Virus record (IMG/VR): IMGVR_UViG_3300045988_125232
Location: 1 to 28,227 of that record
Origin: a virus
Taxonomy: Duplodnaviria; Heunggongvirae; Uroviricota; Caudoviricetes
Length of the DNA: 28,227 bases
Direction: 5' to 3' (one strand)
Positions 1-7,402 of this stretch are shown one piece after another (positions within the stretch are counted from its first letter, which is position 1; every line of letters starts with the position of its first letter). Position numbers and translations under genes: made by a program. Under the pieces are notes generated by a model. That model saw only the letters and a list, made by a program, of their open reading frames with translations. It had not been told where the DNA came from and did no database searches.

Positions 1-242
1 GGTATCTGATTCGCCCCAGTCCCCACATTCCTTTTCGCCGCTTCTCCCAAACCAACCTTTGATGGAATGGGCGCGTGCAGTCATATTGGTTGTATTAGCT
101 CGGCCCCCTGATTTTTCACATTCCCGACGGCACGCGTCACGGCGTGCCATATAAATTTATCAGCCAATAGAATTTGGTTAGAGAGATAAAAGCGGGATGC
201 ACAAAACTCTGCATTAGTTCGCAGAGGGGTGGGGAGTAATCC

Positions 243-272
243 TGATGTGATGTGATGGGATGGGATGGGATG
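243..272. repeat. Tandem pentanucleotide tract, (TGATG)x3 followed by (GGATG)x3
   Basis: Six consecutive 5-nt units read directly in the sequence, in non-coding DNA upstream of the tRNA-derived segment. Confidence 0.5.
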
Positions 273-396
273 TGTGCCAGTTTTGTGTCGCACGAGGATT
301 GTTACGATACTTCATCTTCATGCATGTGCCATTAACTTGAGGCGTGTGAATGCGGTAATGGCTATATAAAACAGTTAGTTAAATGTGGTTCTACTA

Positions 397-442
397 ATTC
401 GTAATGCGAAGGTCGTAGGTTCGACTCCTATTATCGGCACCA
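397..442 (+). other. Partial tRNA-Thr gene (3' 46 nt, anticodon loop to CCA); prophage attachment-site core
   Basis: Matches the 3' portion of an enterobacterial tRNA-Thr (thrW-type, anticodon CGU) as I recall it, ending in ...GGTTCGACTCCTATTATCGGCACCA. The upstream bases cannot form the complementary acceptor stem (GCCGATA is absent), so this is a fragment. It lies 14 nt from the integrase stop codon. Confidence 0.7.
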
Positions 443-456
443 TTTAAATCAATAAG

Positions 457-1620
457 TTACACATCATTAGTACCTTCCTTATTTCTTGACTGGGACAAAT
501 TTGGGACCGATGGGTTCAGAATCGAGTCTATTTGCCGTGCGTGTTCGGTAAGGTGATTAGGTGCGAGGTGAGCATATCGACGAACCATTTCGATAGACTC
601 CCAGCCTCCCATTTCCTGTAACACTGATAACGGGACTCCGGCTTGAACCAGCCAACTTGCCCAGGTGTGTCTCAAGTCGTGAAATCTGAAATCATCAATA
701 CCTGCTCGTCTCAGCGCCGCTTTCCAGGCTATGTTTGCGTCATACCGCATCTTCCTGACTGTTGGCGCTTTCGTTCCGTCTGGTTTGGTACAGCTTTCCT
801 TATACACAAATACCCAACGGTGATGATTCCCGATTTGTTTTTTCAATACGCGACATGCAGTATCATTCAGCGCAACGCCAATTGCGCGGTTTGATTTACT
901 CTCTTCCGGGTTTATCCATGCCACCCGGCGCTGCATGTCTATTTGTTGCCATTCAAGGTTGATGATGTTCGAGCGTCTTAAGCCTGTTGCAAGTGCAAAT
1001 TCAACAACAGACTTTAATGGCTCCGGACATTCATCAATCAGCCTTTGTGCTTCATGAGGCTCCAGCCAGCGGATCCGTTTATTCTTTGGTTGAGGCACTT
1101 TAATAATTGGTGCCTTATCCAGCATTTTCCATTCACGCTCTGCGGCTCTTAGCAGGGCCTTTATAAATGAAAGATGCGTAGCCTTCGTTGCAACGGACGC
1201 TGGTTTTGGCGTGTATTCTGGAACAGGTTTCCCTTTTTTTCTGCATGCTTCTGCCCTGAGTTTCCAGTTTTCCTCATGACGCCGGTTCGTCATTTTCTGC
1301 ATTGCTGAATAAATTTTTGATTCAGTAATGTCTCTTAGTTGCATTCCTGCGAAATGTTGAAGCCAGAATCCGATCCGGCTTTTGTCATCGTCCAGTGATT
1401 TTTTATGTGCTTTCTCTTCAAGCCACCTGACACACGCTTCCTCGAACGTTATATCAGGAATTTCACCAAGTTTGCTGACCCGCCATGCTTCAGCCTTTAG
1501 CTTGTCATGGAGTTCTGTCGCCTGCCTTTTGTCCTTTGTTCCAAGAGACTGTTTAAATCTTTTACCGTTCGGCAATGTGAAACTGGCGTACCATATTTCA
1601 CCTCTGCGGAAGAGTGACAT
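457..1620 (-). CDS. int: Tyrosine-type site-specific integrase (P22/Sf6-like)
   Basis: 387-aa ORF. The C-terminal region carries tyrosine-recombinase signatures ([10 protein letters not shown] and RRYAHL with the catalytic Tyr). The N-terminus [14 protein letters not shown] resembles P22-family Int as I recall it. Its 3' end abuts the tRNA-derived att core. Confidence 0.95.
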
Positions 1621-1847
1621 TTTCTTTCCTCTGTTATGCCATCACCCGCGCTCACCTGGACAGTATGCAGCGGAGACTGAAGCGCCGCAATGCAGGCTTG
1701 TCGTGTTGTGAGGTAAGGAGATTTATTCTTAGTGGGATCTTTGCGTGTTGCCTGCAGACGCCCTGTGCGTATCCAGTTAATGGCAGTCGGTCTGGATATC
1801 TTGAGAAAATGACAGGCCTCATCTAGCGTGAGGCTGTATGGTTCCAT
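1497..1847 (-). CDS. xis: Excisionase (Xis, P22-type)
   Basis: Internal Met of the 144-aa ORF gives a 116-aa product beginning [29 protein letters not shown], a winged-helix excisionase-like N-terminus. It has a GAGGTG Shine-Dalgarno, sits directly upstream of int and overlaps the int start, the usual xis-int arrangement. Confidence 0.75.
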
Positions 1848-2152
1848 TATTTCACCTCTTGCTGTGATATTGTTGAAAAATGAATGCCAGCTCGTTGTTG
1901 CCAGACGATCCAACCGAGAGTCATATCCCATGCCATGTATTCGTTATCGCCGTTTTTTGCTCTCCGACTATCTACTAAGCCACCGAAACGTTTTTCCATA
2001 AATAATTCATAGGATTCGCGTTCATCTGGCTCTACTTCCAGAGATAGGAGTGCGATTTCATAAGCACGGCGCTCAATATCGTCTCGCACGTCAAGGCTGC
2101 TGATACGCTCTTTGATTTCTTTAATCAGTTCTTTGTCGGTAAAAGTGGTCAT
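1847..2152 (-). CDS. Hypothetical early-left operon protein (101 aa, acidic)
   Basis: ORF translationally coupled at both ends by overlapping stop/start codons in the leftward operon; no recognisable motif. Confidence 0.55.
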   Translation of the reverse strand: MTTFTDKELIKEIKERISSLDVRDDIERRAYEIALLSLEVEPDERESYELFMEKRFGGLVDSRRAKNGDNEYMAWDMTLGWIVWQQRAGIHFSTISQQEVK

Positions 2153-6291: not shown

Positions 6292-6471
6292 TTGCGACAA
6301 GTTAACCGCTGGTTCAAAGATCACTACGGAGTACCCGTCAGAGTCATTCGTTGGGAGCCGGAAACACAACGGGTTATCTACCTCCGCGAAGACTATGAGC
6401 ATGAGTGCTTCAGCCCGCTCGAACAGTTTCGTCGTAAATTCAGGGAAATAGAGGTCGGTCATGAGCACTAA
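6292..6471 (+). CDS. Small protein (59 aa, TTG start) translationally coupled to the replication gene
   Basis: AAGGAG ribosome-binding site 8 nt upstream of TTG; its stop overlaps the ATG of the next gene. The product (…[35 protein letters not shown]…) is more protein-like than the serine-rich tail of the overlapping 112-aa ORF. Confidence 0.35.
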
Positions 6472-7402
6472 ATTAACCGGCTATGTATGGGATGGTTGCG
6501 CTGCGTCAGGCATGAAATTATCCAGCGTGGCAATTATGGCCCGCCTGGCTGATTTCAGTAATGACGAAGGTGTGTGCTGGCCATCAATTGAAACCATTGC
6601 CCGTCAGATTGGCGCGGGGATGAGTACCGTCAGAACGGCTATCGCACGGCTGGAAGCAGAAGGCTGGTTAACGCGTAAGGCGCGTCGCCAGGGTAACCGC
6701 AATGCGTCGAATGTTTATCAGCTTAACGTTGCGAAGCTTCAGGCAGCGGCATTTTCTCAACTGTCAGATTCTGACCCGTCAAAATCTGACGCATCAAAAT
6801 CTGACCCGTCAAAATTTGATGCGTCGAAATCTGGCAAAAAAGCGGGTTTTCACCCGTCAGAATCTGGCGGGGATCCGTCAGTAAAATCAAAACATGATCC
6901 GTCAGATAAAAAAACTTCTCGTCCGGACGCTTCGCAACCGGACACGCAGACGGCTGAACAGGAGTTTTTAACTCGCCATCCTGATGCGGTTGTATTCAGC
7001 CCTAAAAAGCGCCAGTGGGGAACGCAGGATGATTTGACCTGCGCACAGTGGCTCTGGAAAAAAATCATCGCCCTGTACGAGCAGGCCGCCGAATGTGACG
7101 GCGAGGTGGTTCGTCCCAAAGAACCGAACTGGACAGCCTGGGCAAACGAAATTCGCCTGATGTGTGTGCAGGATGGTCGTACTCACAAACAAATCTGCGA
7201 GATGTACAGCCGCGTCAGCCGCGATCCGTTCTGGTGCCGTAACGTGCTCAGCCCGTCGAAGCTGCGGGAAAAATGGGATGAGCTTTCCCTGCGCTTATCG
7301 CCGTCCGTCAGCACGTACACCGAAAAACGCGAAGACCCGTACTTCAAAGCCAGTTACGACAACGTGGACTACAGCCAGATCCCGGCAGGATTCAGGGGGT
7401 GA
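6461..7402 (+). CDS. Replication initiator (O-like, N-terminal winged-helix DNA-binding domain)
   Basis: 313-aa ORF with an N-terminal HTH typical of phage/plasmid replication initiators (…WPSIETIARQIGAGMSTVRTAIARLEAEGWL…); a repeat-encoded low-complexity linker (DPSKSDASKSDPSKFDASKS) overlies DNA iterons. Confidence 0.8.
   Translation: MSTKLTGYVWDGCAASGMKLSSVAIMARLADFSNDEGVCWPSIETIARQIGAGMSTVRTAIARLEAEGWLTRKARRQGNRNASNVYQLNVAKLQAAAFSQLSDSDPSKSDASKSDPSKFDASKSGKKAGFHPSESGGDPSVKSKHDPSDKKTSRPDASQPDTQTAEQEFLTRHPDAVVFSPKKRQWGTQDDLTCAQWLWKKIIALYEQAAECDGEVVRPKEPNWTAWANEIRLMCVQDGRTHKQICEMYSRVSRDPFWCRNVLSPSKLREKWDELSLRLSPSVSTYTEKREDPYFKASYDNVDYSQIPAGFRG
6761..6845. repeat. Iteron array inside the replication gene (putative origin)
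   Basis: At least four tandem 15-bp units (TCTGACCCGTCAAAA, TCTGACGCATCAAAA, TCTGACCCGTCAAAA, TTTGATGCGTCGAAA), with further CCGTCAG repeats and A-rich tracts out to about 6905. Confidence 0.6.

Follow-up and report, generated by a model that had tools for sequence, protein, structure and literature searches.

The window analysed here is the whole stretch of 28,227 nt of DNA from a tailed virus (Caudoviricetes; IMG/VR record IMGVR_UViG_3300045988_125232). Its first 456 nt consist of a left flank of 396 nt, a 46-nt fragment of a tRNA-Thr gene, and a 14-nt spacer that separates this fragment from the stop codon of an integrase gene. The integrase gene is convergent with the tRNA fragment and is followed by an excisionase gene and by the body of a prophage (Table 1). 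Below we refer to the phage on the right as prophage Y and to the putative element on the left as element X.

Table 1. Features of the window; offsets in brackets are counted from the att core
Feature	Position	Strand	Remarks
Probable int-distal end of a neighbouring thrW-integrating phage (element X)	1-396		edge of a tail-fibre segment, SRAP remnant and type-2 att arm
Pin/Hin-family invertase crossover site, edge of an invertible tail-fibre segment	41-68		41-61 is CTTCTCCCAAACCAACCTTTG
SOS-response-associated peptidase (SRAP) 3' gene remnant	81-165	-	holds the palindrome 129-148
Pentanucleotide microsatellite (GATGK)n, copy number variable	243-274	+	TRF period 5, 6.4 copies
TGTGCCA, candidate type-2 Int arm-type site	273-279 (-124)	+	same offset in the attR of 1218KP and in the attP contigs L037 and L055
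TGTGCCA, candidate type-2 Int arm-type site	325-331 (-72)	+	motif also at +49 and +60 beside every type-2 int
CGTGTGA-containing element	343-358 (about 54 nt from the core)	+	conserved in both arm families (SfI arm and window arm)
att core, 46 bp	397-442	+	thrW positions 31-76; would be common to X (attR core) and Y (attL core)
Type-1 tyrosine integrase (SfV/SfI/SfII/SfIV type) of prophage Y	457-1620	-	387 aa; Pfam Phage_integrase, E=2e-47
TGGGAC, two copies, candidate type-1 Int arm-type sites	491-496, 502-507 (+49, +60)	+	inside the 3' end of int
Excisionase (xis)	1497-1931	-	HTH_17 domain; homologous ORF annotated as xis in SfI, SfV and SfII
Prophage Y body	1932-28227		genes for early functions, lysis, an HK97-like head and a contractile tail, the last ones being those of the tape measure and the DNA circularisation protein; cut off where the window ends

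The tRNA fragment, ATTCGTAATGCGAAGGTCGTAGGTTCGACTCCTATTATCGGCACCA, is 100% identical to a part of the annotated tRNA-Thr genes of about 5000 E. coli genomes. Comparison with the intact thrW genes of two other loci (L008 and L013) shows that it comprises positions 31-76 of the tRNA, i.e., its last 46 nt. The initial annotation had described a 3' fragment of tRNA-Thr with the integrase gene on its 3' side and no intact tRNA gene next to it, and this description holds in all its parts. ARAGORN found no tRNA genes in the whole window. A search of positions 250-520 against Rfam with Infernal gave no match to the general tRNA family RF00005 even at E<=10; the sole tRNA-like match in this region was to tRNA-Sec and had 12.9 bits against a gathering score of 47, which is noise level.

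The same 46 bases have been published as the core of attP, attL and attR of SfI, SfII, SfV, SfX and P22 (PMC3636060). The 23-bp attP site of P22, ATGCGAAGGTCGTAGGTTCGACT (PMC8022706), is found inside them at 404-426. The locus has the composition of a thrW att site of the P22/SfV family: a 46-bp core with the 23-bp P22 site and an integrase gene of the family, adjacent and convergent. There is one copy of the core in the window. Positions 361-396 are suggestive by eye of a vestigial 5' half of the tRNA, but we rejected this candidate, since its local alignment was non-significant in comparison with shuffled sequences (fraction 0.28).

On the right side of the core the window is easily recognized. 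Its DNA from position 389 on matches the attP-int-xis region of SfIV, SfV, SfII and SfI with 98% identity. The two TGGGAC motifs in the 3' end of int recur with identical offsets in SfI, SfV, L162, phage L and prophages of the ECONIH4/L008 type. Prophages in ECONIH4, 0H26, LR536430 and other chromosomes match positions 3300-28227 with 100% identity, and for ECONIH4 the identity begins exactly at 397. The ORF at 6461-7402 includes an array of about six iteron-like 15-nt direct repeats (TCAAAATCTGAC-like; 6749-6871), which resembles a lambdoid replication origin within a replication-initiator gene.

The exact integrase protein is encoded in 899 blocks of the collection, where its commonest neighbours are thrW, proA and proB. 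Its commonest setting is int-[thrW]-proA-proB, seen in L008 and in 17 similar places. Among the informative IMG/VR loci with a window-type int, the gene stands beside an intact tRNA in 60 cases out of 70 and beside a partial copy in the other 10; int is next to an intact thrW in 1218KP, E423 and ES9 as well. These observations bear out the earlier statement that a single integration would place int beside the intact tRNA. In six of the 24 long contigs a further integrase comes after the exact protein, a sign of tandem islands.

The left flank is of a different nature. It is present in only two of the 5426 complete E. coli genomes and consists of phage DNA, not of conserved core chromosome. Its counterpart in E. 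coli 1218KP, with 96% identity, forms the phage side of attR, and the locus there is arranged as proB-proA-thrW(intact)-int(type 2)-prophage-tail fibre-[sequence similar to 1-396]-core-ykfI. Two contigs from IMG/VR and two from metagenomes have the same arm, again at junctions of the attR type (L004, L005/L014, L015).

The flank starts with the edge of an invertible tail-fibre segment. The crossover site, which we take to resemble hix, gix and cix sites, matches at 41-61 the 20-nt inverted repeats that bound a 1.8-kb segment beside pinE in ECONIH4. In ECONIH4 the pinE gene adjoins; in the window no pin gene follows the site. Homology to other genomes breaks at 54-64, and the ECONIH4 prophage, which is otherwise identical, has at its equivalent tail-fibre site only 88% identity with positions 1-60. 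The SRAP remnant shares about 93% identity with full-length SRAP genes at their 3' end and is annotated by RefSeq as a pseudogene fragment in 1218KP and ET5. An ORF of 70 aa at 81-293 gave no Pfam match, and no record lists it as a called gene. The short palindrome, placed at about 126-145 in the initial annotation, is real; it has a 7-bp perfect stem (129-135/142-148) and a 6-nt loop, and its size is only marginally above chance in 400 nt. We considered it as a terminator and dropped the idea: no T-run comes after it, it lies inside the SRAP remnant, and the terminator scan made no call.

The pentanucleotide tract, previously noted at 243-272, is likewise genuine and extends to 274 according to TRF. 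It numbers five units in the window, seven in 1218KP and L015, and three in ET5, in arms that are otherwise about 96% identical; it is missing from the type-2 attP contigs L037 and L055. The tract abuts the TGTGCCA site at -124. An imperfect direct repeat of the CGTGTGA-containing element lies on the other side of the core, at 536-551.

A part of the flank has an independent existence in ET5 (L002 6001-6337), where a module that corresponds to positions 54-400 of the window, with the SRAP remnant and the type-2 arm, stands at the end of a lambda-like prophage that carries a DGR and lies near yecD. The identity ends at window position 400, inside the old core, and four TTGGGGCA repeats follow. 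This module may be a fossil att arm left by a swap of integration modules. The breakpoint at 400 could also be read as an anticodon-loop crossover; we abandoned this reading in view of the published P22 attP site at 404-426.

To compare the arms, we aligned 110-300 nt on either side of every fetched copy of the core. The arms form two families. Three types of integrases use one identical 46-bp thrW core, and the arm motifs co-vary with Int residues at about 8-25 (L003, L016, L017, L037, L055, L013, L288). The integrase of 1218KP, which represents type 2, is 68% identical to the type-1 integrase of the window. Type-1 and P22-like integrases are accompanied by TGGGAC at +49, +60 and -60 and in some cases at -125, while type-2 integrases are accompanied by TGTGCCA at +49, +60, -72 and -124. 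The third type, found in E423, is 56% identical to type 1 and 63% identical to type 2 and has TGTGCCG/TGTGCCA at +49 and +60. TGTGCC(A/G) goes with Int types 2 and 3 and TGGGAC with type-1 and P22-like integrases. The N-terminal (arm-binding) region of Int groups the proteins alike: types 2 and 3 have ..WHCDFVxPxGxRxRRS.., and type 1 and P22 share another string. Judging by their position and co-variation, TGGGAC and TGTGCCA are probably arm-type binding sites of Int, and they look like determinants of arm-type specificity.

The conserved TGGGAC arm occurs together with a type-1 Int in the attP of SfI, SfV, SfII and SfIV, in phi458, in L162, and at the attR of ECONIH4, whose prophage is 100% identical to the phage of the window; the P22-like phage L is similar. 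TGGGAC is present on both sides in six of six distinct cognate attPs of type-1 and P22-like phages, with the reservation that the cognate examples are partly close relatives (Sf phages), so that independent lineages are fewer than the raw counts suggest. The arm of the window type is paired with a type-2 Int in all five cases in which the int is known (1218KP, L004/L062, L005/L021, L037, L055). In two of them the type-2 Int is encoded at the opposite end of the arm-bearing contigs, with identities of 95% (L005/L021) and 92% (L004/L062). The metagenomic contigs L037 and L055 hold a cognate type-2 attP, in which a type-2 arm is followed by the core and a type-2 int.

Two further observations concern type-2 phages. 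Some of them supply a thrW 3' part with a compensatory change in the T-stem, T to G at core position 20 and A to C at core position 34 (L013 45000-45045, i.e., attL of 1218KP, and L043, L047, L049, L075 and L079); the rebuilt tRNA differs from the host allele and the helix is kept. In a contig of 14.3 kb (L229/L022, IMGVR_UViG_3300042922_001299), thrW adjoins a type-2 int and host DNA adjoins a type-2 arm, which suggests a very small element, degraded or satellite-like, that uses the type-2 system.

The window itself has TGGGAC on the int side and two copies of TGTGCCA on the distal side, and a motif search found no TGGGAC throughout 1-396. By these motifs it is a mismatched hybrid, in which a type-2 distal arm is joined via the core to a type-1 int. 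It differs from a cognate attP, as the free form of a phage would carry it, in that the distal motif is not the int-proximal one. Since the arm motif of the left flank belongs to a different type of integrase than the adjacent int, the flank most likely belongs to another element. The initial annotation had raised this possibility for the left 396 bp, and it gains from the findings that this is mobile-element DNA, that it corresponds to the phage-side arm of the attR of 1218KP, and that it is of the wrong arm type for its neighbour. The two arm families are distantly homologous and have the CGTGTGA element in common; because of this, some cross-function between them is conceivable.

Mixed junctions are not confined to the window. 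An arm related to that of the window, also of the TGTGCC type (arm-2b), adjoins a type-1 int in about 13 IMG/VR contigs out of 42, and 31 complete E. coli genomes contain the arm-2b/type-1 int junction. The element that has arm-2b as its distal arm in E423 encodes the third type of Int. In ES9 the whole array can be read: proB-proA-thrW-int(type 3)-xis-degraded P22-like prophage-tailspike-gtrCBA-arm-2b-core-int(type 1)-xis-second prophage. The suggestion that type-1 phages legitimately carry arms of the TGTGCC type was rejected, as these two complete genomes assign arm-2b to the third type of Int. Contig L153 was rejected as direct proof of an array of a type-2 and a type-1 element: the neighbour in it is without the exact int-side motif of type 2, and it carries arm-2b.

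Tandem islands are also present in ECONIH4 and in L009-L012. In these cases (for ECONIH4, L006 6983-8534) the identical prophage is followed by a partial core and then by a P4-like or other integrase, and the thrW locus often stacks at least three elements. The architecture is thus found in finished chromosomes, and in the window too the left flank looks like an int-distal arm, from another element integrated at the same core. The exact junction of a type-2 arm with a type-1 int did not turn up in exact-junction scans (IMG/VR, GTDB genomes, JGI metagenomes), in BLAST searches (E. coli genomes, phages) or through look-ups of exact proteins. A tandem of SfI and SfX at thrW has been produced experimentally (PMC3306764).

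We consider it likely that positions 1-456 are the seam of two different prophages that lie in tandem at thrW. The initial annotation had pointed out that a partial copy followed by int is what tandem integration produces. The mismatch between the arm and Int, the ES9 array, the 31 genomes with mixed junctions and the SfI/SfX precedent argue for the same conclusion, and we hold it with high confidence.

The following arrangement can be proposed. Element X on the left would be a phage with a type-2 thrW integrase, which ends in a tail-fibre invertible segment, the SRAP remnant and the int-distal arm. The core at 397-442 would double as the attR core of X and the attL core of Y, and prophage Y would begin right after it with the int-proximal arm and the type-1 (SfV/SfI-like) integrase. 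We infer that the integrase of X and an intact thrW are upstream of the window: the intact gene, made of the 5' part from the host and the 3' part supplied by the phage, would be located at the far left of X, beside its integrase and proA. A third copy of the core, preceded by a type-1 arm, would close Y past the right end of the window. The infections could have come in either order: Y may have used the attR core of a resident X, or X the rebuilt thrW (attL) of a resident Y. Either phage could presumably still excise alone, because the two arms of each would offer its integrase the matching arm-type sites.

Our first hypothesis, suggested by the layout of SfI, was that the DNA comes from a free phage, excised or circular, and that 1-456 is its own attP, which would then be recombinant, with a type-1 int module and a heterologous type-2 distal arm. 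The order of distal arm, 46-bp core and int is the normal one in the records of SfI, SfV, SfII, SfIV and phage L. Mosaicism is common among phages, the case of ET5 demonstrates that the module 54-400 is movable to another phage context, and the window, which is a fragment, could be a part of a circular genome. The comparison of arms and motifs made us reject this as the main explanation, and we now regard it as improbable. We found no prophage that combines a type-1 int at one end with a type-2 arm at the opposite end. Wherever a type-2 arm adjoins host DNA and the int is known, the partner is a type-2 Int; the type-1 arm pairs with type-1 Int, and the prophages identical to that of the window have a type-1 arm at attR. 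The distal arm of the window is entirely devoid of TGGGAC. Lambda integration has P-arm requirements, and by analogy a hybrid attP would be expected to integrate poorly. If such a recombinant phage did exist, either an integrase of the SfV type would tolerate heterologous arm-type sites or the phage would persist without proper integration.

It seems distinctly improbable that the junction is an assembly artefact, i.e., a chimeric join of the attR of one phage and the attL of another across the 46-bp (or slightly longer) repeat, as could happen in a metagenome or a short-read draft. Analogous mixed junctions are present in complete genomes, and the sequence of the window gives no signal of a mis-join. 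Such a join would be consistent with two facts: the core repeat with a few additional bases is the only sequence common to both sides, and the exact junction is unique among everything searched. However, two thrW phages in one isolate chromosome would form a tandem array anyway, and only their order would be in doubt. Finally, the loss of the 5' half of the tRNA, which the initial annotation had offered as an alternative and which would imply a single prophage beside a thrW with a deleted or replaced 5' half and rearranged host DNA on the left, is scarcely credible even at a locus with frequent IS elements and deletions, as the flank can be recognised as the att arm of a phage, stops precisely where the core begins in six independent contexts, both attR and attP, is preceded by phage tail-fibre and SRAP remnants, and is without significant similarity to the 5' half of thrW.

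The tandem arrangement of two prophages, which we prefer, would add one more example to a kind of arrangement that is known and fairly common, and implies no new biology. It has practical consequences for annotation. A partial copy of the tRNA gene beside int would mark the boundary between two elements rather than a damaged tRNA gene or the end of a prophage, and prophage callers that merge or mis-trim such a region should split it at 397-442. The distinct arm motifs on a common core make it possible to recognise mixed junctions as tandem arrays from sequence alone, and the choice between TGGGAC and TGTGCC at conserved offsets may help to delimit and type elements at thrW.

The layout of the arms is comparable to that of lambda-type heterobivalent integrases (PMC2951348), with short motifs that recur on each arm at set distances from the core and co-vary with the N-terminal domain of Int. 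Unlike in lambda, the sites of the window are candidates proposed by sequence, and the arm motifs themselves differ from those of lambda. The attPs of SfV, SfI, SfII, SfIV and P22-like phages (PMC3636060, PMC8022706) have the identical core, the 23-bp P22 site, a convergent int 14 nt away and TGGGAC at +49 and +60, all as in the window. Their distal arm has TGGGAC at -60, and in some cases at -125, whereas the window has TGTGCCA and is thus no cognate attP.

The closest chromosomal counterparts are ES9 and E423, where thrW, int, the element, its arm and the core are followed by the next element; in ES9 a type-1 int comes directly after an arm of the TGTGCC type. In these genomes the element on the left, a degraded P22-like gtr phage, has the third type of Int and arm-2b, while the arm of the window is of the kind found in 1218KP (type 2). 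The window also resembles the tandem SfI-SfX lysogen of S. flexneri (PMC3306764), in which two phages integrated successively at the same 46-bp thrW core. The internal junction of that lysogen consists of the distal arm of the first phage, the core and the int of the second phage, and the intact tRNA is present only at the proA end. In contrast to the array proposed here, of which only the junction is visible, both SfI and SfX are serotype converters that carry gtr, and their tandem was followed experimentally. The left neighbour in the window ends in a tail-fibre/SRAP remnant and has a different arm type, which implies that two different types of integrases would share one thrW core here.
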